A stretch of 63,763 nucleotides of DNA, the filler included, from Hausera hauseri (lineage: Eukaryota): the NCBI GenBank assembly GCA_046269625.1. It is 10 parts of 10 records of this genome, joined end to end, with 100 filler letters (N's around TTAATTAATTAA, not from the genome) between each part and the next. Parts side by side here need not be neighbours in the genome. Positions count along the whole stretch, not along the records: positions 38,675 to 51,128 come from JBJURY010033336.1; 9 more parts are not named here. One strand, given 5' to 3'. Position 1 is the stretch's first letter, and each line of letters begins with the position of its first letter. The position numbers and the translations under genes were made by a program. Below, in pieces: positions 15,012 through 61,774 of the stretch. Under the pieces are notes generated by a model. The model searched no databases, was not told where the DNA came from, and saw nothing but the letters and a program-made list of their open reading frames with translations.

Positions 15012-15071
15012 TCCGCTGACCTTTTCAACAACTTTCATACATCCCAGGACACTTACTGTCTCCTGTTATAC

Positions 15072-22784: not shown

Positions 22785-23091
22785 ACTAGCTCCAATTTTA
22801 TTTGATCGTAGTCAGTGACAACATTCGTTTCTCTCACTCTTACATTGTAATTAAAGTGGGCATTTTTAAGTAAACTATCTGTTGTACTTTTCTAGCCAGA
22901 CGGAGTATGAAAATTTTCTTCGAAAAAAATTGTTCTTTTTCGTTAAAATGTGGATTAGTTTTAATGTGTCAAAAAGAATTTTTTTACAGAATTTGAATTA
23001 AAAAGAAATAAATCAATTCAACCATTTTGCATTTCAATTTTCAAATCTTATCTTTTGGAATTTATACTCTATATATTTGGATATTTATCGG

Positions 23092-23624
23092 AGTAGGGAG
23101 AAAATGTGCTTTTGGTCCCACCTCGGTGGGGGGGGGTAATCAATACATCGATGTTGCATAGGTGCCGACCGATAGTGCACCCGAAGCACTATCGATCCAA
23201 AAAGTGCCTAGCAACGGTGCCCTTAGTCACAGTTGCTAATGGCACTTTTGCCTTTTCACTAATCGATCGCTGCACAGTACACTATTGATCAAATCGATGG
23301 TACAAAGTGTTAATCGATAGTGCACATAAGTGCACACCGATTGCTGCAAGTACAAGTGTGCAGAACATGTGCAAGTGTGCAAAAATCAATAATATTGGAT
23401 TTCCGATATTTCAAAAAGTGCTGATTAGCACTTGTGATCGGGTGCAATTGGTAGTGCACGTGATGTTTTGTGTGAATGTGCAGTTAGAATTTAAATCGGT
23501 TGATTGGTTTTCGAATAATTCGCAAGTGGGGTAAAACCGCCACAGGACTTTCCGCTATAAATTTTAAATCAATGATATGAATATGGCACATATACTGGCG
23601 TGTGCAGTACTTGATGTAGTATCG
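23092..23624 (+). repeat. Probable Polinton terminus/TIR starting AGTAGGGAGAAAATG
   Basis: Inverse homologue of 12300-12740; the AG-starting terminus fits Polintons. Confidence 0.7.
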
Positions 23625-23724: not shown

Positions 23725-23838
23725 TTTATGGATCGATAGTGTTCCGGGTGCACTATCGATTGGCACATGTGCAATATCGATTTATCGATCCAACCCCCCC
23801 CGGGGGGTCTGTGCCCGAATCCCCATTTTCTCCCTACT
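23725..23838 (-). repeat. Third copy of the same Polinton terminus, abutting a gypsy pol gene
   Basis: Ends CATTTTCTCCCTACT and is homologous to 12635-12740. Confidence 0.7.
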
Positions 23839-36819: not shown

Positions 36820-37530
36820 TAATTAAAATGTGCTTCTGCTACACTCTAAATCGGGCTTTTGATACCGGCTTTTTCCTTGTATCCTTGCAACTCAATATTC
36901 ATTTAACACTTTAAACCACCACCACCATCATCACTACCAAGTACATGAGACATTTCGCGACCAATGAAATCAAACAATTTCGTTTTCGGCGCCCGTAAAT
37001 CGACAGATTGCTGTTGCACGGTTGTTTCGTTTAACTTTAAATCCACGTTTAATTGATGCAGCGCATCAGAAAGTTTACCCGAATTTTCACACTAAAGCCG
37101 TTTTACACCATAGCTGTGCTTGGGTGCACATAGAGACATGGGATAATTCAATGAAATCAGTACTGGCGTTTGCAGAAAAGGCATTTCATACTTGCGAAAA
37201 ATTCATTTCGGTAAAAATATCTGTCTTTGGCACGACGGTTTTGATTTTTGTTTATGTATTCCAATCATTGCATTTTGCCTTTTTAGCGTCGTTTTTGCTG
37301 TTGCTTATGATTATTTCTGAGCAAGTTGCTTTTTCGTTTCCAGACAATCGTCACTAGAAGGTTTATCTAATTGTTGGACAGGTTCTGTTTTCGTTTCCAG
37401 CAGTTTGAGATTAGAATTGTCGTTTTTGTAGCCAAACAACTACGACCAATCTGAACTTTCACCATTCGCACAACCATCATCATCACCATCATCATTGAGT
37501 AGAATCGTTTTTCGTCGTCGTCGTCTTCCA
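36820..37530 (-). pseudogene. Polinton accessory gene of unknown function (paralogue B)
   Basis: Frameshifted; C-terminus MNIELQGYKEKAGIKSPI*SV. Confidence 0.35.
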
Positions 37531-37605
37531 TGGCAGTTATGTCTGAATGAGCATGGGAATGGTAGTTATAGTTTGTTGTTGTGGTGCAATGTACATTATT
37601 TTGAT

Positions 37606-38021
37606 TCATAAAACATTTATGTGCTTTTTAATTTGGTTAATAATAAAAATTTTTCTACTGCTAAACACACTGACACAAAGTGGGCGAAACAGTGTCAGTC
37701 TCACTTCAGGAATCTGTTCGGGTTTATACGTATATTCAGTAGTGGCCATTGCTAATTTGTACAGATTGATTGTTTGGTAGTCTAACTGAGCCGTTACCAT
37801 TATTGATTGAATTTGGTCAGTGACAATTCCAAATGGTAGTAGTTTTATAGCTGTGATTGATTTGCGACAATCCATAATACGACACTTTTCCGATTTAAAT
37901 ATAATGCATGTAAAATCCAGTGGACACTTGAGGACATACTGTGTCGGCTTCCATTGATTAAAAGGTAGTGTGTTAATGTCACACTCGGTAACATGTCCGC
38001 GATAGTTGATAATAACTAACA
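37606..38021 (-). pseudogene. TATA-binding-protein (TBP)-like gene
   Basis: Two TBP half-repeats: TCIIFKSEKCRIMDC and IQSIMVTAQL...INLYKL...YKPEQIP...VSVFSSRKIFI, compared with IQNIV...INL..L...YEPEQFP...IFSSGKMVITG. Confidence 0.72.
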
Positions 38022-38119
38022 TTATGGAAACAGTGTTTATACTATAGATATTCATATGTGCGTGTAACACGATTATAAACAAATAATGTGGTGAAGAAAG
38101 GTTGTATTAATATTATTAG

Positions 38120-38674: not shown

Positions 38675-38745
38675 TAATTATTTGCGGTTGTAGATCAGTG
38701 ATGTGTGGAAATTATAGGGGGCGGCGTTTCTTTTGAACATACCTG
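38675..38745. mobile_element. Terminus of a Tc1/mariner-type TIR element, followed by TA at 38746-38747
   Basis: GAAATTATAGGGGGCGGCGTTTCTTTTGAACATACCTG is the exact reverse complement of 51043-51080. Confidence 0.85.
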
Positions 38746-38747
38746 TA

Positions 38748-39591
38748 TATAACAGATATTAAAAATGATAAAAAGAAATCAATAAGATGTGAAATAACCC
38801 ACAAGCAACAGTCGTCATGTTGCAATGTTACGAGAGGAAAGATGTACCAGATAAACTACAAATTAATCCGCAAAGAACAAGGAATTGTTTCCAATATACT
38901 AAAGCAGAAAGGTCCAATGATGTACGTAAAATACAAAAATCTTACTAAGTATAAAGATAAACATTCGAAAATCTCGACGCTATCAGTGCACTCCCAATTA
39001 ATTAATAAAACTAAAGAGATGACCATTTTGATCCTACCGTATGCGTCACATTCCCGACCGAAACGGTCCATCTGGGAAAACGTAACAATTACACCGACAA
39101 CCACTGCATTAATCATAGCGGTCAAACCTGACCTAGATTTCTTTAAAATAAAATTCACCTGCAAAGTCCAGCAAATGATAGTCGCAACAGGCGTAATTAC
39201 GCCCGATGATTTAATTGTACCTTGCGCAGCCCTGACTCCTGATACAAAATACACCATTACACTTAATCTGTACAACGAAAATAACAAGGTAGTGTCCACA
39301 AAAATCTTGACAGCCTATACAAAAGATACCAAGGAATCAGATTTAATAAAACCACCCAAAAGCAAAATCACACCCAAAATAGTAACTACAAAGAAACCAA
39401 CAAGAGCAATATATACGTATTCACGTATGGAATTAATATTAATAGGTACGATAACCCCTGTCGCACTAACTCTACTAATAATAATCGCGATAAAAGTAAT
39501 TAAGATGAAACGACAACGTCAAAAACCCGGTTGGGTACGCATAGACATGCGTCGCCTAACAAAGCCGCTGGACTCGGATAATCCGAGCTAA
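38748..39591 (+). CDS. C-terminal part of the retroelement polyprotein: Cys-containing beta module, furin site RPKR, FN3-like domain, stalk, TM helix and tail
   Basis: Open from 38749 in the frame of ORF 38842; ALTPDTKYTITL; TM LILIGTITPVALTLLIIIAI followed by KMKRQR; joins 51042 in frame. Confidence 0.8.
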
Positions 39592-39720
39592 CAATTACAT
39601 CAATGGATTGCATGTTACGCAATCCAGTATATTAAGATAACTAAATATGATTTAGTTACCTTAAGAACTCATAAAATTCAAAATCGAACGATTGCCTACG
39701 TATTATACTCGACAACCGTT

Positions 39721-41022
39721 ATGATTACGTTAAGTATACCTTGTAACAGTACATTGACTATTATTTTTACAGTTATGAAATCTTCTCAATCTATCCAGTC
39801 CTCCACAGCGATGCAGATCCAAACATTGCAAAGGTCAAAACACTGGTACGACAATGCCAGAAACCATTTGATAAACGCAGGGCCAACAAATCAGTATCAT
39901 GTTGTGATGAATGACAATACCTATTGTCTAAATTATCCACACCTCCAGCAAATCCCCAATAATCTCAAGGGGTACAGTATGGCTAATCGGTCACTGGCCT
40001 TAATACAAATGACCAAAGCCACTTCATTCCTCATAAAAGACCTGATCACCTTACCCAATAAATATCACAGCCTCAATGTCTACGACATACTGGGAAAATT
40101 CCAGATCAAAACAAAGAACTCAACCACGAAAATGGCAGGTGATCTTATCAATCTAGACCCTAACTATGGAATATCTATTGATTCCAAGTTCATGGATAAA
40201 AACACGATAAAAGTACGTTCCCTTACCAACCGTATAATGATAGGAGTTGAGGTAATAAAATCAGAAAAATTCTGGCCCACGGAACCCCAGGGAAGATGCT
40301 TCAACCTGCCAGAACCAGACTACCACCAATATAAAAAGAAATCGTATCGAAGGACAACCGACATCAATGAAAGCGACATGGCTATCGTTGCAGTAAATTT
40401 GGCCTATGACCAGTTTAACCAACTCCAGCCGATAGAATGCAGCATTATGAATCTAACTGGCGAAACCCTCTTCTATTCAATTATCACGCCTAGACAGAGG
40501 ATTAATAACTATGACACTCACGTAACCGGATTGACCGAGTCGCAAACGAACAATCAGATGGATGTGAATGACTTCTACCAGAAGGTCAGCACAGTCTTAA
40601 CGGATAAGTTGGTAATCGGGGCCAACGTATTAGAAACATTAACAAATTATCTCAAATGCCCACTACGAAGAATTGCAGGAGTTTGCGATATTTTATATCA
40701 AGAGGACGTACTGCAAAAATACCATATGGAGGTTATCAGTCATAAGGAGCTAGCCAAACGCTTCTATGAGACACGAACCATGCCACTTCGAAGTACAGTA
40801 TTGGTTCAGTGTTATCAAGCCATTTACCGTTCGTTAAAATGGATGGACGATGTGATCGACACAAGCACGAGCCCCGATAAGGTGTTAAAAACACCCCCGT
40901 CATCTAGAAAAAGGAAATTCCAGATGGAAGAAACCATATTTATGAATGGAGAAGTCTTCACAATCGACGCAGTGCGATATAAATCGCAATCCGGAAACTA
41001 CATCTATCTTCCTCCTTCTTAA
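39721..41022 (+). CDS. Accessory ORF with a C-terminal ISG20/REX4-like DEDDh exonuclease fold, catalytic residues apparently degenerate
   Basis: IVAVNL...CSIMNLTGETLFYSIITPRQRINNYDTHVTGLT...VSTVLTDKLVIGAN...DI; intact 433 codons. Confidence 0.7.
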   Translation: MITLSIPCNSTLTIIFTVMKSSQSIQSSTAMQIQTLQRSKHWYDNARNHLINAGPTNQYHVVMNDNTYCLNYPHLQQIPNNLKGYSMANRSLALIQMTKATSFLIKDLITLPNKYHSLNVYDILGKFQIKTKNSTTKMAGDLINLDPNYGISIDSKFMDKNTIKVRSLTNRIMIGVEVIKSEKFWPTEPQGRCFNLPEPDYHQYKKKSYRRTTDINESDMAIVAVNLAYDQFNQLQPIECSIMNLTGETLFYSIITPRQRINNYDTHVTGLTESQTNNQMDVNDFYQKVSTVLTDKLVIGANVLETLTNYLKCPLRRIAGVCDILYQEDVLQKYHMEVISHKELAKRFYETRTMPLRSTVLVQCYQAIYRSLKWMDDVIDTSTSPDKVLKTPPSSRKRKFQMEETIFMNGEVFTIDAVRYKSQSGNYIYLPPS

Positions 41023-41059
41023 AAGAAAAATTCGGGGCAATTTTCTTCGGCCCCCCATC

Positions 41060-41923
41060 AACTTATTCAGTCGACATTTTACAATTTTGTGTCTCATATT
41101 TTTTAATTCACATTTACATGCTGCGATCGACATATTTATTATTGACCGACATTTCTATTATTGATCTGACCTGCAAAAATATGTGCTATGACTTCGAGAA
41201 TAATTGGGTGACATATGTTATTTTTAGCGATATTTCCCATTTGACATTTGACAGTACTTAACCGACATTTACAGTCTGCAATCAATTTTTAATTCTCCTA
41301 TATCTCCCATTTGACATTTTGTAATCTGTAATGTGATTTTTTAACCAGTGGTGTGCTATATACGATCCTGCATGACATTTTTAGTTTGTTATAGACCATT
41401 TTTTTAATGATTAATGCAATTCTGCATGTTTATAAATCAGGTATAAATACCTGTGGTTTAACGTACGATTTAGAACAACTTTTGACAACAAGTTTTTGAA
41501 TCAAGTTTGGGTATTATTGTTACTTTAAGTATGTGTTTACTTTTCTTAATATCGTAACGGTTATCAATATTTTGCTCTTTTGTTTGTAGATAAATTACTA
41601 AGTAAACCAAGTAATTAAGTAATCGAATCTAAATAACTTGGAGGACCCGACGTGCTGTCAGACCGCCGCCCAAATAATCAAACTAAACTACAGTCAAATA
41701 AAACCGTAGTAACTAACGAGTAACACACGCATACCTTGACCCCGACACACTACCCATAAGTTAAGATAGTAAGGTCCTTGGACTCTCTCTCTACTCACAT
41801 CGCATCGAATAATCTCCCTATTTGTTCACCCGTTGGTTTAATAATTGTCGTTTAAAAACAAAACCAATCGTCTAAAGAAAAGATAAATACGCTCTCCCCA
41901 TTTAAATCAACGGAGACTGAACA
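41060..41923 (+). repeat. LTR of the env-bearing gypsy element (5' boundary approximate)
   Basis: Non-coding, ends ...GAACA two bases before the PBS; TATA-like TATAAATA at about 41442. Confidence 0.65.
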
Positions 41924-41925
41924 AC

Positions 41926-41943
41926 TGGTGCCGTGACCCGGGA
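41926..41943 (+). promoter_or_regulatory. Primer-binding site, tRNA-His-like
   Basis: TGGTGCCGTGACCCGGGA compared with the canonical tRNA-His PBS TGGTGCCGTGACTCGGAT. Confidence 0.8.
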
Positions 41944-42094
41944 GTAAACCATTCGCATATAAAAAAAATTTAAATAATAAAGTAATAAAATTACCAAGAT
42001 AGCTACCAGATCTGGTGCTAGATATAAAGAAGAAAACGAAATTGCATACGGTCTTGAATATTTAAATAATCTTAGTGAAGAAGAAAACGAAATA

Positions 42095-45000
42095 ATGACA
42101 GGAAATAATGCACCCATAGAGCAGGTGATTCAGTCAAAGGCTGATTTTACCCTGCCAATGAAGAAATTTTCAGGAAAAGAAGACGTGCAAGACTTTATTA
42201 TGGAGTATGAAGTATACTCGAAAAGTTTCGGATGGACTGATCAGCAGCGTGTAGAGAGGCTACCTCTCCACCTAAAAGGGACTGCTCTAGCCATTTATTT
42301 TCAAATGCCTGATGCCGATAAGAACGACTGGAAAGTCGTAAAAGAAAAATTGCCTCAAAAGTTTTTGGTTGACCCTACCGGAAAAGGGAGAATTGAAGAA
42401 TTCATAAGAAGAAGGCAACGTAAAGACGAAACGGTTCAGGAATTTGTATGCGCTTTAGAGAAATTGGCTGCACGAGCATACCCAGATGCAACGACAAGAA
42501 GTAACGCCTTATTGGCCCAATTCCAATATGGATTAGAAGAAAGATTGAGGACAATAATCTCGCAGGCTGACCCATCCACGTTTTTAGAAGCAATAAGAAA
42601 AGCACGTAAAGCTGAGAGAGATGCTGAGTTTTATAGATGGAATAGATTCAGAAATTATAACAATAATAGTTACGATAAACGTAAAAATAACAGCACTCAA
42701 AGGTATGAACGATACGAAAGGAATAGAAGTCCATCCCAAACCTCAGCCACTGAAGCTGAGTCAGATGGAGAAAAGAAAGTAAGATTCAAACTGAGAAATG
42801 AAGGAGAGAAAACATCCTATAAAAAGAAATACCCCAAAAAGGATGGAAGATCATGGCCAAGTATAGATTCAGAAGGAAGATTAAAGTGTTTCAATTGCAA
42901 CAAATACGGCCATATTGCCAAAGCGTGTAGGTCACGAAAAAGAGAACCTATGAAGAGCAACATGAGATATAATAACAATAATAAACCCAAGAAGGACTAT
43001 ACATCAGTTACATCAGACGAATCATCCGATGGAGAATACGAAACAGAAGAAAGTGAATCGGAACGAAAGAAAAAAGAAAGTACTAATTATGTCAATGATG
43101 TATTGTCTCATCGAATGAAGACGCAATTAGCGATGGAATTAAAAGATTATAAGACTCAACAAAAACGGTTGAAAGAAAATAGTATCTGCACAATAGAAGA
43201 TAAGCCTGAAGGAACAAAAACTCGACGAAGTAGGAAGAAGAGTAATAAAAAGATAATCGAAGTGGAATCAAGAGAGACTTCAGTGGAGAAGAGTGATGTA
43301 GAAAAGAAGACAAAGAGAGGACGGAAGAAGAGTTTAATTGGAGAATCAACCTCGGAAGAAGGAGAAGAAGAAAGTAAACCGGTAAAAATATTTGATGAAA
43401 CAGTGATGGAGCAGGTAATCCAAAGAAAAGAAGTTGACTTAGATGCTGACGATGAAATTATCGAAGCTATAGTTGCTATTAACCCCGAAAACGTCGAAAT
43501 AGATGGAGCAATAAAAGCCTTACTGAAATTAATAAACAGTAATGTATCAGCAAATAAATTAAACGAAATATTATTTCAATTATTGTTACTTGCGCATGAC
43601 ACCAGCCCAGTTCGAGACATAGCACGAACGATACTAGCTAAAGCAGCAGAAGCAGAGATAGGAAAAAGTGAATTTATCAGAATAACTTTAAAGGAAGGAA
43701 ATCAAGACCTGAGAGTAATCCGGATGAAGGAAAATGACGACATAGAGACCCTACGCGAGAAAATCGTAGAATTAGAACCGGATTATAGAGAAAAACTGTA
43801 CGGATTAAGTTTCTATGGAAGAACGCTATATAGTTATGACAACTTGTTACGGATAGGCATTAGAAACGAAAATTATAATCCCATTACCATTACTCTAGTG
43901 GAGATTCACCCGGACGCCAGAGCTGAGGTAGTAGCAGATAATATAATTAGAGAACTGGAGCCACCAGAAGAACATTTGCTAGGTGACACTCAAGATGTTA
44001 CAGTTCAGACAGAGGCAAGAAGAAGAGGAAGACCGAAAGGTACCAAGATAAGTGACATCAAGAATAAAAGAGATAGAAATGAAGAGATAGTACGCCGGTT
44101 GTTGTTATCAGGAATAGATATGACGCCAGAGTCAGTAGACATCGACCCGCTAATAAGAACGTTACTAGCAAGATTGCACACCTCATTTGCATCATTCGAT
44201 ATGCAAGTGACAATTCCAGATGAATTATTTCAGTCATTACGAAATTCATTATTGAGAATTAGTAGGCAATTTTACGAAAATATTACGGAAGAAAGAATTA
44301 ATGAATTACACGAACAAGATATTGTAGAAAAGATGTTGGCCTCAGGAGTTACTCGAGAAAAGGTATTAACCGCGGTGTCATACATAATCTATAAAATAAT
44401 TGCCACTAATCACCAAACAGAAAATCTTGAAGAGATTGATCGTAACATCAAGACCATAGTTAAGGTTTTGCGAGATACGCTACAAAACTGGGTTCAATGC
44501 AGAGGAGGTTGGATACCGAGTTTAATGGCTAACACAGCCATAACGGAAATGCCAGACAGACCTTCTGGCTCACCAGCGACCACTCCACTTAACCAAAATG
44601 CTATTAGACAAGGTATAACGAACGTGTCGTTTGTGGAAATCCTTCAACTTCTCTTAATCATGTCCATTTGCGCACCTAATGCTATGGGTATAGTAGCATA
44701 CGACTGCTCAAAGCCGAAAGAAGGACAAAAGTATTCATTTGTTGACCTTGAAAAATGTCCAGAAGCGGACCCAGAACAATTAGTCACTACTACTGGTCAT
44801 CGATATTGGGTTTATCAGGAATCCGAATTTATAAAAGTCAAAATACGAGAATGTTATTTGAAACGATCTTTTTTCCTTTTCAATTGCGCATATTACTCTG
44901 GTAATTCGGCAATAATAGAACCAACTACACCATTTGAGCCTATAATAATATCTCGTGCCGAATGCCAAGACGCTTTTAAAATTGGAACAATAACGGTGCA

Positions 45001-48000
45001 AAATGCACATATACCCGCAGTAAGAAATAGAATAAAATATACTCGAATTTTCCGAGCAGGAAAAATCGACAAAACTAGAGAAGGAACTTGCAAAGGAGTA
45101 GACTATGACGTAGGCGGAACAATCGCACCTAGAACGGTAGCCATTGAAGATTACCAAGTACAATTGAAAGAATATGAAGCGTTGTTTGACTCGCAAACTA
45201 AATTAATGACTACGATGGCTGAGTGTGAATACGATAACGGTGAATGTGACACAGGAGAATCGAAGATGGCTTGGGAAGTATCTACAAAAAAATGCCATTT
45301 AACCTTGCTAAAAAACGGAATATTTAACAAAACGGTAGGGAAATCAACCGATAAAGAGACAACTACGTTTAAGGAAGGAGTAAAGGAAGCAAAAATGACT
45401 GAAGTCGCTACTATAGTGTTCTCAGCAAACCCAGAGGAAATGATGAGATTCAAAATCACAGGCACGCTGAACAAATGTGACGAAGAAATATTTAAAACTA
45501 ATTACAAAGGGATATACTTGTCCTTGAAACAAGTACACGGAGCAAAAGCGAAACTAGACAAAACGGATATAAAGTTAACCCAATATTTCGATAATAAAAT
45601 AGATTTCCTAATCAACTATGTAAGAATGGAAATTAGAAGTCTATACAGGGAAATAATGATGAATGAATGTAAATTAAATTACGAAATTATGCGAAATAAG
45701 ATGGCTCTGGTAATGACTAACCCAGACATGGTAGCCCCGGTAATGCCATTCGGTGATGGAATAATTGGTAGAATAATGGGTGAAATACTAGTAACTATCG
45801 AATGTAAGAAAGTAGATGTCAAATTAAGACCCACGAATATCTGTACTTCAGAATTACCAGTAGAATACCAGAATGAACCGCGTTATGTAATGCCAGTAAC
45901 AAGAATCCTATTGGAAGCCAACGTGAAGCCGACAATTCTTTATAATTGCACTTTTAACATGTCACCAATGTTCAAAATCAATGATAAAAGTTGGATACGA
46001 ATGCCTAATAGAGAAACGATGCCAGCTCCAGAAATGCTTAGCCTAGTAAATCTGCAAAGGAATCATAAATTCGAACCTTTAACGAGTATCCCACAAGGAG
46101 GGATATATACAGAACAAAACTTAGAGGACTATCGGAGAATGATAATGTTCCCACAACAAAGACAACGAGTAATAACAGAATTGACAAAAAGAGTAATGTG
46201 GGACGGAGAAGGATCACCACAATGGGAAAATCTGATGGGAAAAGACTATTTAAAGAAAGTAACGAGAAATATCATGGAGAAGATGTGGGGAAGATTTCTA
46301 TATTTCGGACAAGCAGCTTCAGGATTTTTAGCAATATATTTTATTATCAGTGCCCTACGAACCATATTTACTGCACTGGGAAAAGCATACGGAATTCACG
46401 CTGCAGTAGGATGTTCGTGGAAAATTTTAATAGCTGTAATACCGGCGGTAGCCAGTTGTTTCCTGGCTAACCATGATGCTAAATGGAAAAAGAAGTTACT
46501 TAAAGAAAAGAATAAAAATGTTGAAGATACCTCACCTTACAGCATAATAAATGACAAAAATGATGATGACGATGACGGTAAGGCGGATAACAAGGAATCC
46601 ATTAGTAATAAATACCTTACCAGAATGAAAAGATTTTCGTTAAGACCAAGAAAAAAGAAGTACAAGAAGAAATTACTAACGGACCTGCCACAACTAAATT
46701 CAGCGGACGAATATAATGGACAAATCTGTACATCAACTTCAGCCCCGTATTATGTACAATCTTTGAGATATCAAGACAATAACGGCTTAGAAAGAAGAGA
46801 AACGTATCCCATGTATCAAGTGTTGCAAATGAAAAGAAGTTACGACGAAAATTTACCATCTCAGCCTACGTGCAAAACGAATGATAAGAATGCACCAAAA
46901 ACACCTACTAGACCCGAAGTAATGATAGATGTGAACGGATACCCAATGCTTGCGTTAATAGATACAGGATCGACCACAACGATAATGGGAAAAAGTCAGT
47001 TACCACCAAAACTCTTGAGAAAACTAAGGAAACCAACAGAGACACTAGTTAACGTAGGAGCATTTGGCACTGAGGAAGAAATAAAGACTGTCCTAGATGC
47101 CAAAATTAAAATATGTAATCAGATAATTGACCATACCATCAGAGTAGCGGAGAACTTAACGAACGAAATCCTTATTGGATGTGACATTTTAAGTCAATTA
47201 GAAGAAGTCTATATTGATCTAAAAACAAGTCAACTTAGGACGTTTGGCAAGAGAGAATGTGAAGGGTCAGTCACCTTAACAAGAGAAATGGTAATACCAA
47301 GTAGAAGCGAGATAATAACGACCGGAAGAATCCAAGGAAGGAGGGAATTTGAAAATGTGCATTTCGAACCATCATATCAGACAATGGAAAGATATGATAT
47401 TCTAATCGCTCCGCATATCGATAAAATACGAGATGGGAAGATTCACCTAAGAATCTGCAATACTGGGAACAGGAAAATACGATTAAGAAGAAATACTAAA
47501 ATGGGATATATAACGGCAATTGAGGATATATTGACCGGATCCGTCAAAGAAAGTGTTAACTCTATAATTTCAGATGTGGATAAGATTGAGAAAATGATAA
47601 ATAAGAAATTGAGTGATGGAAGACAGAAAGTGGAAACGAAGAAAACCCCAAATCATATTAACTGGGAAGAGAAGTTACAAGAATGTAAAATGTTAAACGA
47701 AGAAGAAAGAACAGCACTAAAACAGCTCCTAGAAAGGAATAATAAGCGGTTTGCTCAAAGTGACTACGACTTGGGATCTATGAACGTAATACGACACTCT
47801 ATTAAATTAAAAGATGGCCAAGATAAACCAATAAAGAAGCGACCTTATAGATTAGCATATGATAAGAAAGAGCAAGCCCGCCAGATTATAAAAGAAATGA
47901 GAGAAAATAAAATAATTCGACCTAGTTGTTCTCCTTGGACAGCCCCGGTAGTAATGGTTAAAAAGAAAGACGGAGCTATGAGATTCTGCATAGACTATCG

Positions 48001-51000
48001 AGCCCTTAACGAAATAACAGAAACGGACACCTATCCGCTGCCCAGAATCGACGAGATCCTAGATAAGTTGCACGGATCAGCTATATTTACAACCATAGAC
48101 CTGCAGAAAGGATACTGGCAGGTAGAGATCAAAGAGGAAGATAAACAAAAAACTGCCTTCTCGATAGGCGAAGGATTATGGGAATTTAATAGAATGCCCT
48201 TTGGATTAAAGAACGGCCCACCAACGTTCCAAAGAGGAACAGAGTTGTTATTATTAGACGCCCCTCATGCAATGGTCTATATCGATGATATAATAATCGC
48301 ATCACCTAGTTTTAGCCAACACTTAAAGGATTTACAAGATCTGTTTGATAGATGTGAAATAATGGGTCTTAAAATTAATCCGAAGAAATGCTCATTCGCA
48401 CAAGAAGAAGTCGACTTTCTCGGACATCGAGTAGATCGATATGGCGTAAAACCATTAGAAAAGTTACTCGGAAAAATTAAAGATTTTCCAAAACCTACCA
48501 CCGTAAAGGAACTACGTCGATTCCTGGGATTAGCCAATTATTATCGCAGATTTATAAAAGATTTCAGTAAAATAGCCAAACCATTATACGAATTACTGAG
48601 AGAGGATCTAGAAAAAGTAATATGGACAGCCGACTGCCAGAATTCATTCGAAACTTTGAAAGAAAAACTGCTAAGCGCTCCAATCTTAATATATCCCGAT
48701 ATGAAGAAATCATTTATATTGGCAACAGATGCAAGTGACTACGGAGTCGGCGCAGTATTATCACAAAAGGGCGAAGATGGAAAAGAACACCCAGTAGCTT
48801 ACGCATCAAGGAAGCTGAATAAGCATCAGAAGAAATATGTGGTTATCGAAAGAGAACTATTAGCCGTAATATTTGCACTAGAAGTATTCTCACCTTATAT
48901 CAGTGAAAATAAACCTGTATTGATATACACAGACCATCGACCATTACAATGGTTAAAACAGCATGAAAACCCAAATAGTAGATTATTACGTTGGGCTCTT
49001 AAACTTCAACCATATACCCTGAACTTCCAGTATAAACCTGGAACGCGTAATGCCAACGCGGATTATCTATCAAGATTACCAGAAAACCAGGAAACAAAGA
49101 AAGCCGTAGTAGCAGCTATATGGAGCATGGACGGATCCATAGAGAAGATAAGAGAGAACCAAAGCGAAGATGCCGAAATAAAGGCCATTAGAGGTTATTT
49201 GATGAATAAAATCGTGCCATCAGATAAAGAGTTAGCACGACACCTAGCTAGATTTAGTGAAGCTTACGAAGAAAAAGAAGGATTCTTGTATTATATTCAC
49301 CAGAACGGGCCCGCATTAGTAATTCCAAAGAAGAATCGAGCGGTATTATTAACCCAATACCATAATGGATTATCGGGAGGCCACCAATCGGTAAGAAAAA
49401 CAATAAATAAACTGAAAAGAAAATATTTTTGGTCTACTATGGTAAAGGACGTACAAGAATGGTGCGATAGTTGTAAACTATGCTTCACCCGTAAAAATAC
49501 GGGCTCAAAATTTAAAGCACCCCTCAAAGTATGGGACAATCCACCAGCACCATTTGAATTCACCGCAATGGATATAACAGGACCTTTACCATTAACACGG
49601 AATGGAAATAAATATATCCTCGTGTTCATAGATTATTTTACTCGATGGGTAGTGGCGATACCTATGCATGATATGAAGGCAGACACAATTGCTGAGAAGT
49701 TCGTAGAAAACATTGTTTTCAACTACGGAGCCCCCAGAATATTACTAACGGATCAAGCCTCCAATCTAACAGGGAATGTCATGCAAGCGATATATGAGAT
49801 CATGCAGATACTGAAATTGAGATCAACGCCCGGACACCCAGAAAATAATGGCATGATCGAAAGATATATCGGAGATCTGAAAAGCAAATTACAGACAGTC
49901 GTAAGCGTCAGACAAGATGACTGGGACGAATATATCAACGCATGTGTTTTCGTAAATCGAACATCAGTACATGAAGCTACCAAAGAAACACCATTTTACT
50001 TAATGTATCTGAGGGATGCCAGATTACCAATCGATTTAGACTTCAACGTAAAACCAACTTCGCATTTGATGGAAGTAGAAGAATATAAACAGCTAATGCA
50101 GGAACGCTTACAATTGGCGTACAAAATAATAAAAGGAAATCAATCGGATTATAAAGACAAATATAAGAAGTACTATGACAAGAAAACAAAGAAGCCGAAA
50201 ATTAAAGTGGGTGATAAAATAATGCTACACGTACCATTGAGCAAGAAAGGAAAGACGTCCAAATTAGATAGACCCTATAAAGGTCCATATGAGGTAGAAA
50301 AAGTGGACTTACCTAACATCTGCATAAAGAAAAATAATGCCACGTTCAAAGTGCACGTGAATAGATGTAAACCTGCAGCTAAAGAAAGCCATCTCAGAGA
50401 AGATGAACAGGAAATAGTGAGAACAATTAGCGAGAAACCAATCGGTAAACAAACCACATATACAAGGGTTAGCATAAAAAACTATTTCATATTTTTAATT
50501 TTTATGCTATTGCCTGGTGCTATAACACAAACAATAGAACAGGAAGCGATGAAATCCATGATATGTCATCTAATATCAATATCAGATGATTCATTACTGA
50601 AAAGTATCAAACATCATATAATATATTCCAAAAAGGGTCAAAAATGTATAAAATTTTACGCTGAAAAACCCTTACCTACCAATTATACCGTAGGAATTCA
50701 AGTAATTCATGAGGAGGATCATAAAGAAAAACTAACTCGACAGAACTACGATTGTGAGCTACATTATGAAACAAATGAAACAGAATGTTTAATAGAAGAA
50801 GCCGGTTTATATAACCTATATTATACGCTCATTAAAAAGCGAGGCAATCTCTATCGGACGCAAGATGCTAAAAAGATGGGTCTAATAAAAATTCTTAACA
50901 AACATGAAATGAATGTCACGCAATTAGATGTAAAAATTATCGAACAAATAACAGCAAAACTGATTGCTTTTAAAAACGGAAGAAGTTGCGTTGAAATAAC

Positions 51001-51076
51001 GACAAGGATAAAATTGGAATATAATCGAAGAATAAACATATACAGGTATGTTCAAAAGAAACGCCGCCCCCTATAA
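42095..51076 (+). CDS. Single-ORF Ty3/gypsy polyprotein: Gag, Ubl, AT-hook, Bcl-2-like, class III-like glycoprotein, PR, RT, RNase H, IN, second ectodomain
   Basis: CFNCNKYGHIAKAC at 42887, RRGRPK at about 44020, NWVQCRGGW at about 44490, signal peptide plus IVAYDC at 44690, TM about 46290-46470, DTGS at 46961, YIDD at 48278, TDASD/TDHRPL, HHCC, DDE core, GPY. The last 11 codons come from the inserted TIR. Confidence 0.95.
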   Translation: MTGNNAPIEQVIQSKADFTLPMKKFSGKEDVQDFIMEYEVYSKSFGWTDQQRVERLPLHLKGTALAIYFQMPDADKNDWKVVKEKLPQKFLVDPTGKGRIEEFIRRRQRKDETVQEFVCALEKLAARAYPDATTRSNALLAQFQYGLEERLRTIISQADPSTFLEAIRKARKAERDAEFYRWNRFRNYNNNSYDKRKNNSTQRYERYERNRSPSQTSATEAESDGEKKVRFKLRNEGEKTSYKKKYPKKDGRSWPSIDSEGRLKCFNCNKYGHIAKACRSRKREPMKSNMRYNNNNKPKKDYTSVTSDESSDGEYETEESESERKKKESTNYVNDVLSHRMKTQLAMELKDYKTQQKRLKENSICTIEDKPEGTKTRRSRKKSNKKIIEVESRETSVEKSDVEKKTKRGRKKSLIGESTSEEGEEESKPVKIFDETVMEQVIQRKEVDLDADDEIIEAIVAINPENVEIDGAIKALLKLINSNVSANKLNEILFQLLLLAHDTSPVRDIARTILAKAAEAEIGKSEFIRITLKEGNQDLRVIRMKENDDIETLREKIVELEPDYREKLYGLSFYGRTLYSYDNLLRIGIRNENYNPITITLVEIHPDARAEVVADNIIRELEPPEEHLLGDTQDVTVQTEARRRGRPKGTKISDIKNKRDRNEEIVRRLLLSGIDMTPESVDIDPLIRTLLARLHTSFASFDMQVTIPDELFQSLRNSLLRISRQFYENITEERINELHEQDIVEKMLASGVTREKVLTAVSYIIYKIIATNHQTENLEEIDRNIKTIVKVLRDTLQNWVQCRGGWIPSLMANTAITEMPDRPSGSPATTPLNQNAIRQGITNVSFVEILQLLLIMSICAPNAMGIVAYDCSKPKEGQKYSFVDLEKCPEADPEQLVTTTGHRYWVYQESEFIKVKIRECYLKRSFFLFNCAYYSGNSAIIEPTTPFEPIIISRAECQDAFKIGTITVQNAHIPAVRNRIKYTRIFRAGKIDKTREGTCKGVDYDVGGTIAPRTVAIEDYQVQLKEYEALFDSQTKLMTTMAECEYDNGECDTGESKMAWEVSTKKCHLTLLKNGIFNKTVGKSTDKETTTFKEGVKEAKMTEVATIVFSANPEEMMRFKITGTLNKCDEEIFKTNYKGIYLSLKQVHGAKAKLDKTDIKLTQYFDNKIDFLINYVRMEIRSLYREIMMNECKLNYEIMRNKMALVMTNPDMVAPVMPFGDGIIGRIMGEILVTIECKKVDVKLRPTNICTSELPVEYQNEPRYVMPVTRILLEANVKPTILYNCTFNMSPMFKINDKSWIRMPNRETMPAPEMLSLVNLQRNHKFEPLTSIPQGGIYTEQNLEDYRRMIMFPQQRQRVITELTKRVMWDGEGSPQWENLMGKDYLKKVTRNIMEKMWGRFLYFGQAASGFLAIYFIISALRTIFTALGKAYGIHAAVGCSWKILIAVIPAVASCFLANHDAKWKKKLLKEKNKNVEDTSPYSIINDKNDDDDDGKADNKESISNKYLTRMKRFSLRPRKKKYKKKLLTDLPQLNSADEYNGQICTSTSAPYYVQSLRYQDNNGLERRETYPMYQVLQMKRSYDENLPSQPTCKTNDKNAPKTPTRPEVMIDVNGYPMLALIDTGSTTTIMGKSQLPPKLLRKLRKPTETLVNVGAFGTEEEIKTVLDAKIKICNQIIDHTIRVAENLTNEILIGCDILSQLEEVYIDLKTSQLRTFGKRECEGSVTLTREMVIPSRSEIITTGRIQGRREFENVHFEPSYQTMERYDILIAPHIDKIRDGKIHLRICNTGNRKIRLRRNTKMGYITAIEDILTGSVKESVNSIISDVDKIEKMINKKLSDGRQKVETKKTPNHINWEEKLQECKMLNEEERTALKQLLERNNKRFAQSDYDLGSMNVIRHSIKLKDGQDKPIKKRPYRLAYDKKEQARQIIKEMRENKIIRPSCSPWTAPVVMVKKKDGAMRFCIDYRALNEITETDTYPLPRIDEILDKLHGSAIFTTIDLQKGYWQVEIKEEDKQKTAFSIGEGLWEFNRMPFGLKNGPPTFQRGTELLLLDAPHAMVYIDDIIIASPSFSQHLKDLQDLFDRCEIMGLKINPKKCSFAQEEVDFLGHRVDRYGVKPLEKLLGKIKDFPKPTTVKELRRFLGLANYYRRFIKDFSKIAKPLYELLREDLEKVIWTADCQNSFETLKEKLLSAPILIYPDMKKSFILATDASDYGVGAVLSQKGEDGKEHPVAYASRKLNKHQKKYVVIERELLAVIFALEVFSPYISENKPVLIYTDHRPLQWLKQHENPNSRLLRWALKLQPYTLNFQYKPGTRNANADYLSRLPENQETKKAVVAAIWSMDGSIEKIRENQSEDAEIKAIRGYLMNKIVPSDKELARHLARFSEAYEEKEGFLYYIHQNGPALVIPKKNRAVLLTQYHNGLSGGHQSVRKTINKLKRKYFWSTMVKDVQEWCDSCKLCFTRKNTGSKFKAPLKVWDNPPAPFEFTAMDITGPLPLTRNGNKYILVFIDYFTRWVVAIPMHDMKADTIAEKFVENIVFNYGAPRILLTDQASNLTGNVMQAIYEIMQILKLRSTPGHPENNGMIERYIGDLKSKLQTVVSVRQDDWDEYINACVFVNRTSVHEATKETPFYLMYLRDARLPIDLDFNVKPTSHLMEVEEYKQLMQERLQLAYKIIKGNQSDYKDKYKKYYDKKTKKPKIKVGDKIMLHVPLSKKGKTSKLDRPYKGPYEVEKVDLPNICIKKNNATFKVHVNRCKPAAKESHLREDEQEIVRTISEKPIGKQTTYTRVSIKNYFIFLIFMLLPGAITQTIEQEAMKSMICHLISISDDSLLKSIKHHIIYSKKGQKCIKFYAEKPLPTNYTVGIQVIHEEDHKEKLTRQNYDCELHYETNETECLIEEAGLYNLYYTLIKKRGNLYRTQDAKKMGLIKILNKHEMNVTQLDVKIIEQITAKLIAFKNGRSCVEITTRIKLEYNRRINIYRYVQKKRRPL

Positions 51077-51128
51077 TTTCGTCGCAAATGGAAACGCCAC
51101 CCATAAAATTTCATCGCAAATGTTAACG
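51043..51128. mobile_element. Other terminus of the Tc1/mariner-type element, preceded by TA at 51041-51042
   Basis: CAGGTATGTTCAAAAGAAACGCCGCCCCCTATAATTTC. Confidence 0.85.
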
Positions 51129-55437: not shown

Positions 55438-56260
55438 GCTGTAAAAACCATCCTTGGGTGGTAATGAGGACTCATCCAGTGTTTCCCATGATGTTATATA
55501 ATCATAGGGAAACACTGCTTTCCTTTTAACCAGGTCAAAGGTATCCGGAAAGAATTGCTTCGTTTCCTTGAGTTCTTTGACAGGCAGGTTCTTCACTAAA
55601 CTATCCCGTAAAGATGACATGAATCTGAAACTATTGATGAAACAAAATCGGATTTTACCAGCATGCTTAGTGAAAGTGATATATTTTTCCTCACTGTTGG
55701 GGATCACCTCAATGTTTACTTCAATGTTGCCTAATTCTCGGAATATGAAGTGGCTATCATAGCCACTAAGATTATGAAACACTAGATTGCAGTTGTTACA
55801 TGCTGCGCCACGATATGCACCTTAACTTTCCAATTTTCCTTGATGAAGGACTTTTCGCACAAGTAGCATGATGCTGCCTTGTGCCATTATTGTTCTTGCA
55901 TCCAAGACATGCTCATGTCGTCCTTATGTTGTTGTAGAATCCTTTGAAGATTATGAGCCATGTCTTCAAATCTCTTCATGAAATGTGCTGCTGCATCTGG
56001 ACCCCTGAATAGATATGGTGCATTGTCCAATTCTTTGGCATACATACAATACGATTAGAGTTCGTGATATTGGTATGCCGTTGTACTGCTATGTTGAGGA
56101 CTGGGACTGTATTTGTGAACTGGCTTGAGAATGGCCTCAAAGTCGCAACAGATGACAATTGAGACCTTGATCCTCCTCTCAAATTCCTTAAATTCGATAT
56201 AGTCCTCTTTGGGAAATTCTGGCCTTACACAATAATTGCTGTTTCAGTACATCTTGTGCT
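55438..56260 (-). pseudogene. Polinton PolB exonuclease region with an endonuclease VII-like Zn insertion
   Basis: CDFEAIL, CYLC...YRGAACNNCNL, FHNLSGYDSHF, EEKYITF, SFRFM, RKAVFPYDY; overlaps 9753-9990 in sequence. Confidence 0.88.
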
Positions 56261-59200
56261 TGTAGGTTTTATTTGGTTAAAACAAATCCAAGAAATGAAG
56301 AAATAAATCCACAAGAAACAAGTTGTATTTAAACTTTAAAATTCTAAATTGATAAATCTATACAGAAAAATCAATTTTTAACCATGAAGCACATATATAT
56401 GTATACAAATGTTCATATATAAGAAAATAATCAAAATGTTAGAATAAAAGCATTACAATCTTAAAATCATTGATACAGGAGAAATCACAGATCCCGTGAT
56501 TGCATTGTAAATTACACATTCAGAAAGCAGCAATGAATTAAAAAAAACGATTTAAAATTTAAAGTCAGACAATGCTAGCAATACCTTTGAAGGTCTGTTC
56601 CTTGGTAAATATAGTTTTATTTCAATATTCTCATTGGCATCATCATCTGCCAAAACGATGATAGAAGAACAGCGACAAAACCCACGACTTTATTCTTATT
56701 TGAGAGTTCCCTGCTTTTCTGAATCACTGGATAAATAACATCTTTTCCTTTAAGTGAAATTTCAAAATCGACGACTGCTATATACATTCGAGCAGAATTT
56801 GGCGAGGATACAAGTTGTTTATCTAAATTTTTCTGTCGACTTGATTGCTTTTGATTGCTTTTACAAATCGTTCGAGCTAAATGCCACTGTCACACCATTT
56901 TCAGAAATTGCAGCTTTTGCGTCGCATAATCACATTGTGGGAAAATTCTCTCACCGATTCGACAGCCTCAAACAGTGCAGCCGCATCCTAGCCACTACAT
57001 CACCTTCTCCCCCCGCAGTGGCAAGACAAAAACTTTGAAGAGAAGAAAATGAATGGAAATTACAGTAGAAACAAGAAGAGCTTATACCTATTCGGTTTTG
57101 GTACGTGTTAGACGTTGGACTCCATCTGTGAACTTCTCCCTACTGTAAGTACTAAACGTCACATGACGTGATCTGTTAGTTATAACTGGTACTTGTGGAG
57201 TCGTTGGAGAGAGAGATACTGTGGATTTTGTGGTGCTGGAGGATGTTCCATGAGGCGGTGAAAGTGGAGAAGAAACTGAAAACGGAAAAAGATCACGCGA
57301 AGCAGACGAGATTGCAGAGGGCAGAGAATTGTGCGATGAAGGTGAAATGAATAGTGGATGTGCAGGCGATGACGGATAAGCAAATGGTGAAGGAGCACTG
57401 GAAGATGAAGGAAGTGAAGAAAACTGATTGTGACGCTATAGTGATGGCTGCGAAGGATTAAAATTATCAAGGACATTAGATGGTTGCTCGAGGGTAGAGA
57501 AGTTAGAGTTGGGATTTGAAACAATGCTGTTATTCTGGTCATCATCGATGAAGAAGGCTGGCTTAAGATTAGAAATTTGTACATTATGGGGTTGGTCCTT
57601 GCGTAAAATAGTGGCAGTGTGCGAAGAAAGATTAAGTAATTTGTAAGGTCCAACGTATTGAGGCCAAAAACCAGAATGTGACGGATCCTTCAACCATACA
57701 AACTTGGCTGAGTATATATCCTCTGGGATATAAGATTTGTCTTTGTTTATAAGACGGCAGAACGCATTCGAGTATACATCAGCAAAGTGGGACTGTGCTG
57801 CACGAATAACTTCATCTGATGGACTTTCGTCCAGATTGGAGAGCTCAAATAGTGCACGAACTGGTGTCCCAAAGAGAGCCTCAGCTGGAGCACAGCCTGT
57901 AGTGGTGGATGGCATGAGATGGCATGAGGTCCAGTTATGATTGTTGTTAGCCAGGATTTTTAAGGAAATCTTCATGGTATGATGAAATCTCTCGAGAAGA
58001 CCATTTGCTTGGGGATTGTACGGCGTCGTATGGAGATGGGCTATCTCCAAGTGCTTTACAAGAGATTTGAAAGATTAGCTTCAAATTGCGGACCCTGGTC
58101 CGTTATGATGTGACGTGGTGAACCAAAACGGTTGACCCATATTTTGATTAATGCATCTGCTACTGAGTCGGTGTTAGTTAATCGAGGCGGAACGGCTTCA
58201 GGCCAGCGGGAAGCACGATCCATCATGGATAAGATGTATTGATAAGCGTTGTTGGATGGCAAAGGACCGACAAGATCCAAATGCACAGTGTCAAAATGGG
58301 ACGTACAATGGAAGTGGTAAAGTGGTGGTTTTAGGTGTTTGTGGACCTTGTATTGCTGGCATGCTACACATCCCTTGACCCAGATCTGTACATCTGTACG
58401 CATAGTTGGCCATACAAAGTGGCGTAGCAGTAGTTGAAATGTGGCTTTTGGACCCGGATGATGAAGAGGGTGAAAGTGATTGAAATCTGTCTTTTGTAGC
58501 GATGTAGCAAGAATGATTTTCTTGTTGGTCGAGTTGGAAGTGTCGTAAGCGATGCCATCGATGATTTCAACATATTTAAAAGCTTGGGGAATGTCAGATC
58601 ATGGCTGGTTGCTTCTCAGGACCTCAGAGGAGAAAAGTGGCTGAACTGTAATTGGGTTAACCCACCGCGAAAGCAAATCCGCTACTAAATTTTCGGTGCC
58701 TGAAATATATTTCATGAAGAAACTAAACATCGACAGGTATGATATCTGTCGTTTTTGTCTGGGTGATGGCTGTTTCAAAGTCATTATATGAAGTAAAGGC
58801 TTGTGGTCGGTTTGGATGGTAAATTGACGTGAAAGAAGCAAGTGCTTGAAATGCTTTACCGCTAAAACCACAGCCAAAAGTTCACGATCGAATGTGGAGT
58901 ATCGGCTTTCCGGTTGCGTGAGCTTTCGGGAATATAACTCTAATGGTTCATTGACGCCATTGTATATTTGCTGTAATATCGCACCAGTTGCTGTGGTAGA
59001 GGCATCGGTAGTTAGTATTAATTCGGCGTTTGGTTTTGGAAAAGCCAAGATTTCCACAGTTTTCAGACCTTCACGAAGGCGATCAAATTGATTTACTAGA
59101 TCGGGAGTCCAATGGATTAATTGCCTTTTCTTCCCGGATGAGAGGTGTGCGAACGGTGCCGTTAGTTCGGAGCAGTGTGGCACGTATTTGTCTACGAAAT

Positions 59201-59720
59201 GCAATGTACCTGGAAAACTACGCATATCGGTAGTTGTAGTTGGCAACGTTACGTTTTTTATTTGTTGTAAGCGATCAGGCTGGGGCGAATGCCCTTCAGG
59301 AGTGATTATATGGCCTAAGAAGTTTACACTTTTCTGGAAGAAATTGCATTTGTCGAAATTAATTTGCAGGTTACTTTGATGCAATCTTTGGAAAACGATT
59401 TTAAGATGCTTATGATGTTGTTTTATTGAGCTGGAAGCGACTAATATGTCATCTATGTATGGGTGAGCAAAATCAAGTTCAGAAAGTACGGCATCAATGT
59501 GGCGCTGAAAGGTCTGAGATGCACTACGTAGGCCGAAAGGCATGAAGATATATTCATAAAGGCCAAACGGTGTGATGACAGCAGTTTTTGGAATGTCATC
59601 AGGCGCAACAGGGATTTGATGGTAGGTCTTGTGAAGATCAATAGTAGAATAAGTATTGGTGTTGCTGAGGCTATGAAGAATATCCTTAATGAGTGGTAGT
59701 GGATAGGCATCTGTAATAGT
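56261..59720 (-). mobile_element. CsRn1-like gypsy 3' half (RT, RNase H, IN; PPT at about 57001-57015; 3' LTR 56261-56999), inserted in PolB
   Basis: YIDDI, TDAS, TDHKPL, HLDLVGPLP, TDQGPQFE, NGLLERFH. On the minus strand GGGGGGAGAAGG precedes an LTR running TGTAG...CTACA. Confidence 0.9.
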
Positions 59721-59820
59721 NNNNNNNNNNNNNNNNNNNNNNNNNNNNNNNNNNNNNNNNNNNNTTAATTAATTAANNNNNNNNNNNNNNNNNNNNNNNN
59801 NNNNNNNNNNNNNNNNNNNN

Positions 59821-61770
59821 ATGTGGCGTTGGAATGTTTGACTTGCATTCCGTAAGCCGAAAGGCATGCGTAGGTACTCGAACAAACCAAAAGGCGTTAT
59901 TACAGCCGTTTTTGGAATGTCTTCGGTAGCTATTGGGATCTGGTGGCATGCCCTTTTCACATTGATTGCGTTGAATATTGCGGCACCATGTAGGCAATGC
60001 AATATGTCTGTTACCAACGGTATTGGGTATGAATCATGGATGGTGACGTTATTCAACATTCTGTAGTCACCACAAGGCCCGTATGATTCGTCCTTTTTAG
60101 AACCATGTGCAATGGTGATGCCCACGGTGATGTGGAGCGGCGTATGATGCCTGTTTCTTCGAGGTATCGGAATTCGGCTTCCGCAGCTGCTGTCTTTACA
60201 GGGTCAATTTCCCTCCGGGGTTGCCGAATTGGTCGGTCACATGATGTGACAAGAAAGTGTGATGTTTTCATCTCTTTCTGTGTTGATTGTGCTGAGCGTT
60301 TCAACAGGTTAGGTTATTGCGCTTCCAGCAATGGAGCAATGTCACTGGAATTTGTAATTTTGATATTCGTGACAGCGTTTATAGTTAGTGTGAATGCGGG
60401 TGGAGGTAGTGGATTGCTCCCGCTGGTGAGTGTTCATTTCGGCAATCAACTGTGAGATCGTAGTGATCTAGGAAGTCAGAAACAAGGATTGGTTGATTGA
60501 CATCGGCCAACATGAATGACCAAGCGTATGGTCGGCCTTGTAGGTGAAATTGTAGGTACAGTGTACCTGTTGTTAATATGCGCGTGCCATAGTCAGCTTT
60601 GAGTGATGCATGCAAGACCAGCGTATGTCTAGCGTATGCATTAGGTATCAGCTATAGAGCTGCACCAGTGTCGATTAAAAAATCGAGTTGTTTCGAGATG
60701 TCAGAGTGTAGTGGCTCCGTCTCGAGGGTAAAAATAGCATCGACAATGGGGTCGCGATTTGCATACGGCAGTTGTGGTGATTGGGTTTCCAGTCGACGTG
60801 CCGTTAGTCGTCTGGGCCCATTTAGTTTTTTGATGGCTTGTGAAATTTGCAGCCGGGTAGACAGATTTTTGCGTCTCTGACCAAAATAGTTGTGATAAAT
60901 GCAAGTGTCTTGCATTTTTACGTTTGCTGATGGCTTGTCGAATTGACAACCATGGTAACATTTGTAGGCGGATTTGTCAAATCGTGTGTGGAAATAACAA
61001 ATTTTGGAAAATTTGCCTTTCTTTCTCTTAGGGGATGGACGCCGAGATGACTGTTTGTCTCTGGCTGGCAGATTCTTGTGTGTTACAAGTGTCTGCAGTG
61101 CGGCGATAATGGTGTACAGCAGACTTTTTGGTTAACGTTACGGAGTGGATGTTTTTCGTCGGAGCGGATGCTACGGTACTTTCGTGCACTAATGTATTTT
61201 GTCGGCTTTTGATGATATATCGTCCAACGTGGTATCGAGCGGTAACAACATAAGTGCTGCTTGGATTTGGTTATGCAAAGTACTCAGGAAGTAGCGCCGT
61301 AGTATGTGCTGGTTGGAGTGGAAGTCCAACTCAGCATTGCTTAAGTGTGAGCATAATTTTTGCAACAAGTCAGAAGGTTTCATATTCCTTGTCTGTCGCT
61401 TGATGAAGACCAGGTTGAACTGGTCCTGTTGGGACGGCAGATATGCATTGCATATGGCTGTTTTGATTTTGTCGAACGGTTTTTCATCTGACAGTAGTGT
61501 GTCCTGATCCCTTATGACTGCGAGCGTTGTTGGCTGCAGGTATTGAGTTATTTTTAATGCCTTGTTTAGTTATCCGGTGATTCTGTATTGAGTAGCCCAT
61601 GTTTCAAACACATGGAACCACTTCTCTGGAGTTCCGTCCGAACCTATGAAGAAGGTGAGACATGGTAATTTGGGTGGTTTGGCCCGTGTTGCTAAAGCAG
61701 TTTCTGCTTTTTTGTCAGCGTAAGGTTATTTTATCCAACGGCACAAACCGACATTGTTCGGCTAGTTATG
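59821..61770 (-). mobile_element. CsRn1-like gypsy gag, PR and start of RT, decayed
   Basis: KPSDLL, two CHCC boxes, FLIDTGA, SPWASPLHMV, TPFGLFEY. Confidence 0.85.
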
Positions 61771-61774
61771 CCTT

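Follow-up and report, generated by a model that had tools for sequence, protein, structure and literature searches.

Endogenous retrovirus (ERV)-like Ty3/gypsy elements that carry an envelope gene (env) are known across animals, and whether they spread from cell to cell, and how they handle host defences, is still open. In nematodes, elements of gag-env-pol order have a continuous gag-env-pro-pol open reading frame (ORF); a 2022 study by Sacco et al. is said to treat nematode ERVs and may cover extra ORFs. An env located between gag and pol has been reported for errantivirus-like elements of nematodes, bryozoans and flatworms (Chary and Hayashi, PMC13524379), and the elements described there combine a Ty3/gypsy pol, a class III env of the type of herpes simplex virus gB (HSV-gB) and Monjiviricetes, long terminal repeats (LTRs) and a tRNA primer-binding site (PBS). 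Here we describe an element that resembles them in these features, with one candidate LTR, in Hausera hauseri (assembly GCA_046269625.1). It lies on contig JBJURY010033336.1, positions 38675..51128 of the 63,763-nt stretch that we analysed (hereafter the window; 11 short contigs between N-spacers), and these positions are exactly one whole contig. Read from its sequence, this contig is a permuted Ty3/gypsy invertebrate ERV-like element of gag-env-pol order. Permuted contigs hide an element's 3' genes by placing them ahead of gag, which is a caution for annotators.

Contig ends and the interrupted gene

The two ends of the contig carry perfect reverse complements of 38 nt (38708-38745 and 51043-51080), each next to a TA, exactly as an earlier note on this DNA had described. 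The number of such pairs expected from composition is ~2e-15, so that this one is far beyond chance. The complementarity has no outward extension, and on the inward side the alternating TA flanks add five further complementary bases. Both arms face out of the contig, which holds a 71-nt and an 86-nt stub and none of the transposon body; beyond the 38-nt arm the stubs diverge, as expected of the left and the right end of a single transposon. The insertion that the earlier note proposed to remove is thus present in its two ends, and not as a removable insertion. The long ORF of the contig runs without a stop from 41981 to 51076, and the right stub contributes its premature stop at 51074-51076.

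The two stubs are two different ends of one Tc1/mariner-type element, a label that holds at the level of the superfamily. Each arm, a terminal inverted repeat (TIR), directly adjoins a TA; from the TA flank and a TIR that starts with CAG we presume membership in it. TA flanks, a short perfect TIR starting with CAG and an inner direct repeat are features that Tc1/mariner (ITm) transposons share. In contrast to complete members, the body and the transposase are absent here, so that no family can be assigned, and the name 'Tc1' used in the earlier note stands for the superfamily and not for Tc1 itself. No exact match to the TIR was found elsewhere in the window, relaxed searches returned two weak unrelated sites, and no overlap was found between the two contig ends. 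A decayed mariner-type DNA transposon of ~1.2 kb lies at 8195-9424, with 31-nt inverted ends and a helix-turn-helix ORF (8481-8972); it was rejected as the source of the 38-nt TIR, its own TIR being different.

The sequence flanking the stubs belongs to two ORF pieces (Table 1): piece A, in which gag-env-pro-pol is continued by the beginning of a second membrane protein, and piece B at the left end of the contig. When D1, the intact cysteine (Cys) module of piece A, was aligned over the break, with the break read as X, it matched in the in-register frame only (score 64, 0/5000 shuffles); the other two frames scored 37 and 28 and contained 5 and 4 stops. The score of 64 was the best among 12,675 window controls (D1's own region excluded), with a moderate margin over the next unrelated score of 58, and the second half of D1 against the head of piece B alone scored 50 (2/2000 shuffles). 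Three unnamed ENA proteins that share env (P0002, P0003 and P0004) served as relatives. P0004 has 3771 aa without a stop; its residues 53-3101 match piece A and ~3519-3608 match piece B, in that order, and its C-terminal part shows the same succession of signal, ectodomain and transmembrane (TM) segment as the end of piece A followed by piece B. The fibronectin type III (FN3) domain D3 of piece B matched P0004 with 0/1000 shuffles.

Because D1 aligns across the break and the order of the pieces matches P0004, both contig ends are, to judge from these alignments, parts of one interrupted post-integrase gene. The claims that the contig is permuted at a DNA-transposon insertion and that its upstream ORFs make up the element's 3' part are borne out by the outward arms, the alignment of D1, the order seen in P0004 and the match of piece B to the post-integrase ectodomain of that protein. 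The in-frame joining of the ends (8948 + 844 = 9792 nt) also reproduces as arithmetic, with compatible frames, and speaks to lengths only. Several results count against a single gene. The first half of D1 against the tail of piece A alone was not significant (341/2000 shuffles), nor were D1 and the head of piece B against P0004 (242/1000 and 627/1000). The FN3/TM tail occurs in only one of the three relatives; P0003 differs after the integrase and P0002 ends earlier. Homologues of piece B numbered 0 among 2077 candidates (proteins of 490-2000 aa) and 0 in 1.84 billion representatives, which leaves no close uninterrupted copy.

The post-integrase product is predicted to be an FN3-bearing type I membrane protein, and among its modules it is D3 whose fold the models support. 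The D3 model gave Foldseek matches to FN3 with a probability of 1.00 (best E 2.3e-3) and a VIA Z of 9.4 to fibronectin (root-mean-square deviation (rmsd) 3.3, 95 aligned). A counterpart of this protein was found in P0004.

Table 1. Features of the contig, in window coordinates. AF2, AlphaFold2; IR, inverted repeat.
Feature	Positions	Strand	Evidence or remark
Transposon stub, one end; TIR arm 38708-38745, outward	38675..38745	.	exact 38-nt IR; stubs differ past the arm
TA adjoining left arm, presumptive target-site duplication	38746..38747	.	sequence
Piece B, 3' portion of the split ORF: D2 (second half), D3, Ser/Thr/Pro-rich stalk, TM helix, basic tail, stop	38752..39591	+	
Fibronectin type III domain D3	39049..39336	+	AF2 pLDDT 80, seven strands
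TM segment of post-integrase membrane protein	39436..39486	+	hydropathy 2.59
Stop-free, non-coding-like spacer	39592..39774	+	GC 0.295, T 0.34; in-frame codon score not best of three frames
ORF C, ISG20/REXO (RNase T, DEDDh)-like	39775..41022	+	apparent degeneration of first catalytic motif
Candidate single LTR, ~866 bp	41061..41926	+	imperfect inverted termini, 8 GACATWT repeats, TATA at 41431 and 41442, AATAAA at 41697
PBS, tRNA-His(GUG)	41926..41937	+	12/12 match to the 3' end given for His_GUG in supplement 1 of PMC13524379
Piece A: continuous gag-env-pro-pol ORF, extended by the initial part of a second membrane protein	42095..51037	+	stop-free; Pfam
Gag: Ty3-type capsid and one CCHC knuckle	42155..42928	+	PF19259 E 2.4e-5 (below cut-off), PF00098 E 3.8e-4
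Helical segment and ubiquitin-like module, common to relatives	43442..43867	+	PF00240 E 0.04 (weak)
Bcl-2-like domain, tentative	44219..44512	+	PF00452 E 1.8e-5, 25.6 bits vs cut-off 31.4, profile 6-100/100
Internal signal and class III (Monjiviricetes/gB-type) envelope glycoprotein	44624..46540	+	PF24664 E 1.2e-88
Protease (PR), reverse transcriptase (RT), RNase H (RH), integrase (IN), Ty3/gypsy order	46907..49840	+	Pfam; catalytic motifs of PR, RT, RH and IN present
Second internal signal; D1, an intact Cys module (50612-50851); first half of D2, truncated by insertion	50486..51037	+	
TA adjoining right arm, presumptive target-site duplication	51041..51042	.	sequence
Stub of other transposon end; TIR arm 51043-51080 and degenerate inner direct repeat	51043..51128	.	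repeat 23/32 matches

Backbone of the element

The env lies between the CCHC knuckle and the protease, and the ORF has hydrophobic segments at aa 844-868, 1412-1428 and 1442-1458; no solved relative of the env ectodomain was found by sequence. The closest solved RT is that of Ty3 (E 2.7e-92, 313 bits), a ranking by match and not by tree. Lower RT/RH matches were 8r0s, which we take to be of caulimovirus type (207 bits), and entries that are presumably a foamy-virus-type Pol (143) and murine leukaemia virus (109).

The PBS is directly upstream of gag and adjoins the one LTR candidate. The termini of this candidate show 10 of 12 inverted matches, which are not significant alone. GACATWT occurs in 8 copies at 41073-41380, in the candidate U3, against a Markov mean of 0.25 and a maximum of 3 in 2000. 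The remainder of the element holds one copy, and the U3 cluster is a possible enhancer or RNA signal. A shorter LTR of 268 bp from 41656 was ranked lower, with the TATA boxes outside it and AATAAA near its start. At 41023-41065, where the plus-strand primer would be expected, there is a small hairpin followed by a C-run and not a purine tract. An Rfam scan of the window gave no match, and blastn detected no further LTR copy, either in the contig or elsewhere in the window.

Origin of the permutation

A Tc1/mariner-type transposon inserted at a TA in the post-integrase accessory gene, splitting a Cys module; gag, env and pol are left intact by the insertion. The genomic order would then be LTR, gag-env-pol, 5' accessory piece, transposon, 3' accessory piece, ORF C, LTR. 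An assembler that merged near-identical LTRs would pass from the 3' end through a single LTR node to the 5' end, and its walk would end 70-90 nt into the higher-copy transposon at either side, yielding the permuted contig. We consider it reasonably probable that a short-read assembler ran through the collapsed LTR in this way and stopped at the transposon, and the permutation is probably an ordinary product of assembly. The earlier note had offered two identical, collapsed LTRs as an explanation; one candidate LTR is seen, its partner would have to be supposed, and collapse is nonetheless the reading that we favour.

The window has 20 other contig ends, six of which fall within repeats that also occur elsewhere in it (matches between two satellite contigs dropped); contigs of this assembly tend to end in repeats, and the short stubs fit this pattern. 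An insertion-bearing element in several copies is possible, since the replication genes are untouched and only an accessory gene was hit. Several copies are indeed favoured, because passage through the LTR needs a dominant 3'-to-5' path, and if all of them carried the insertion this path would be the easiest for the assembler. Strict graph assemblers stop at a two-copy repeat such as an LTR. This weighs against the assembly explanation, which then needs extra assumptions (several copies or a greedy path), as do the tentative 5' edge of the LTR candidate and the fact that LTR collapse is read from the contig alone. Collapse of the two LTRs of a single provirus is therefore less likely than it appears, and several insertion-bearing copies or a circle would fit better.

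A real head-to-tail tandem sharing its internal LTR, with the contig as the stretch between successive transposon copies, would yield an identical contig and require no mis-join at the LTR. In plant genomes such LTR-sharing tandems occur commonly, and perhaps gypsy elements form them more often (PMC11899658), a precedent that concerns plants; short reads would collapse the units of a tandem too, so that the contig cannot show one, and we regard this origin as unlikely. Quite unlikely, in our view, is derivation from extrachromosomal 1-LTR circles that arose through reverse transcription or recombination between LTRs, the transposon repeat being where the circle was opened. A circle renders the 3'-to-5' path dominant, the replication genes look intact, and a permuted scaffold of an expressed bdelloid element has been interpreted as a circle (PMC5408684); the ends of our contig show no overlap, though none is expected with a break at a repeat. 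The further proposal of the earlier note, that the transposon first jumped into a 1-LTR circle, which recombination with a chromosomal transposon copy later placed between two copies, found no support: the outward-facing ends are compatible with this geometry, but it requires two rare events that no data call for, and it is very improbable. Equally remote, and largely refuted, is the idea that the stubs stem from two independent insertions, with no relation between the sequences next to them, since a frame match by chance (1 in 3) and the lack of close relatives of piece B stand against D1 across the break, colinearity with P0004 and complementary left and right transposon ends. LTR collapse during assembly, a tandem and a circle would all yield the contig that we see.

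Accessory modules and ORF C

Between gag and env, the helical segment with the ubiquitin-like module matched P0002 and P0004 with 0/300 shuffles each, and P0003 with 17/300. No convincing solved relative of the ubiquitin-like segment was found. Directly before the env signal lies a region that tentatively resembles Bcl-2 proteins. BOK or BAX made up 8 of its 15 PDB sequence matches (best E 0.066). Its AF2 single-sequence model was poor (pLDDT 44); with this model, Bcl-2-family entries accounted for 44 of 45 among the Foldseek matches listed, but with E of at least 0.14 and rmsd of 14-21. A Foldseek-free structure search had no Bcl-2 protein among its best 50 (best Z 6.5), an outcome that is uninformative for such a model. 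Homologues of the region numbered 0 among 768 candidates, no usable ESM Atlas match was obtained, and comparison with P0002, P0003 and P0004 gave 3, 109 and 67 of 300 shuffles, that is, no clear match. The Bcl-2-like domain, a possible cell-death regulator, is hence a lead, and the Pfam, PDB and Foldseek lines that point to it all lean on sequence.

ORF C, which is separate from the long ORF, weakly resembles ISG20/RNase T in sequence. ESM Atlas gave 0.90 to RNase_T clusters, with recognition below threshold, and the PDB matches were ISG20 (E 0.17) and ISG20L2 (E 0.19); Pfam returned no match of ORF C to the RNase T family. The first catalytic motif appears to be without its D/E, as seen by eye in the translation against the family consensus, at a position covered by no alignment. 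Against P0002, P0003 and P0004, ORF C gave 4, 33 and 1 of 60 shuffles, again without a clear match.

Expression of ORF C is most likely from a spliced RNA, which is more likely than readthrough. An acceptor-like site, a T-run followed by ACAG, lies 2 nt before its ATG. Stop-codon readthrough from the long ORF was our initial reading: ORF C is in frame with piece B, no stop follows the UAA that precedes the spacer, and this UAA stands in a CARYYA-type context (chance ~0.004 by composition, noticed post hoc). CARYYA promotes readthrough (PMC4132726), and by the same source UAA with CARYYA is far less efficient than UGA or UAG. Because UAA is the weakest stop in this context, the 61 codons ahead of the ATG look non-coding and a splice-acceptor-like site is at hand, readthrough was downgraded and is now held to be doubtful.

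Other contigs of the window

The other contigs contain gypsy remnants, a decayed mariner and satellite, which resembles a short-read assembly of an animal genome rich in repeats. Decayed gypsy pol remnants at 23725-27000 and 55438-63763 show ~25-48% identity to the pol of the element where aligned. An inverted pair of ~395-nt repeats (12314-12707 and 23128-23519, 83%) is found on one contig, and the same repeat begins the next contig. Within the pair (12314-23519) are a gypsy pol remnant (16333-19984) and host-like pieces, namely Med14 RM6 (13298-14389, E 4e-6), a phosphopantetheine attachment site (15012-16013, E 3e-6) and an RRM (22061-22540, E 7e-8). A long TTCG-type satellite extends over two contigs (28165-32000) and gives rise to spurious long ORFs. 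A 5-kb contig carries, on its minus strand at 36246-38106, an intron-free dUTPase (E 6.5e-23) adjoining a TBP-like ORF (E 5e-6), a pair that could belong to a DNA virus or a large mobile element.

Discussion

The anatomy of the element suggests a single polyprotein, made by a tRNA-His-primed element and threaded through the endoplasmic reticulum (ER) twice. The first internal signal would open the class III fusogen, so that Gag, the ubiquitin-like module and the Bcl-2-like domain would stay cytosolic and tethered. Pol would be cytosolic as well, and the second signal would open the type I membrane protein with its FN3 domain, which may serve in attachment or as a decoy. An FN3-type second surface protein and a possible Bcl-2-like domain would be candidates for attachment and for cell-death control, respectively, and could be tested as isolated domains, and ORF C may have a role in RNA binding.

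A bolder picture, which we put forward tentatively and think somewhat less probable than not, is an invertebrate ERV lineage with a host-manipulating accessory set, like that of complex animal viruses. Its Bcl-2-like region would be a real Bcl-2-fold apoptosis modulator fused downstream of Gag, with the env signal as its anchor in the ER (compare the tail of BOK/Bcl-2); a second, FN3 surface protein would come from the same polyprotein, and the 3' end would supply a nuclease-dead, ISG20-like RNA binder. The insertion-bearing sub-lineage would be multiplying, with the gene that was hit dispensable in cis.

The gag-env-pol backbone is already known. The accessory load, comprising the FN3 membrane protein, the ubiquitin-like and Bcl-2-like modules and the ISG20/RNase T-like ORF, was not found in print. 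Literature searches, which did not extend to Sacco et al. 2022, returned no retrotransposon-borne Bcl-2 or FN3 membrane protein, the FN3 match among those listed being fungal. Fibronectin, Bcl, ubiquitin and exonuclease go unmentioned in the text and seven supplements of PMC13524379, taken with long cells shortened. The bryozoan and flatworm rows of that work include LTRs of ~800-1400 bp, a range into which our ~866-bp candidate falls. In contrast to the element described here, none of the 36 nematode, 10 bryozoan and 9 flatworm rows examined bears the label His_GUG (PMC13524379).

The relatives P0002-P0004 share 36-38% identity over env, the same domain order and the helical segment with the ubiquitin-like module, and P0004 also has the post-integrase signal, Cys/FN3-like ectodomain and TM segment in one 3771-aa ORF. 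They differ in having extra protease-like domains and no clear match to the Bcl-2-like segment or ORF C. P0003 and P0004 have up to three aspartic-protease-like domains, one of them after the integrase; C2H2-like fingers lie between the env and pol of P0003. The bdelloid elements Juno and Vesta (PMC5408684) are comparable in carrying a captured DEDD-family nuclease ORF at the 3' end, and one circularly permuted scaffold has been reported among them. Their ORF3, however, is RNase D-like (DEDDy) with intact residues and replaces env, whereas ORF C is ISG20/RNase T-like, looks degenerate and stands alongside env.

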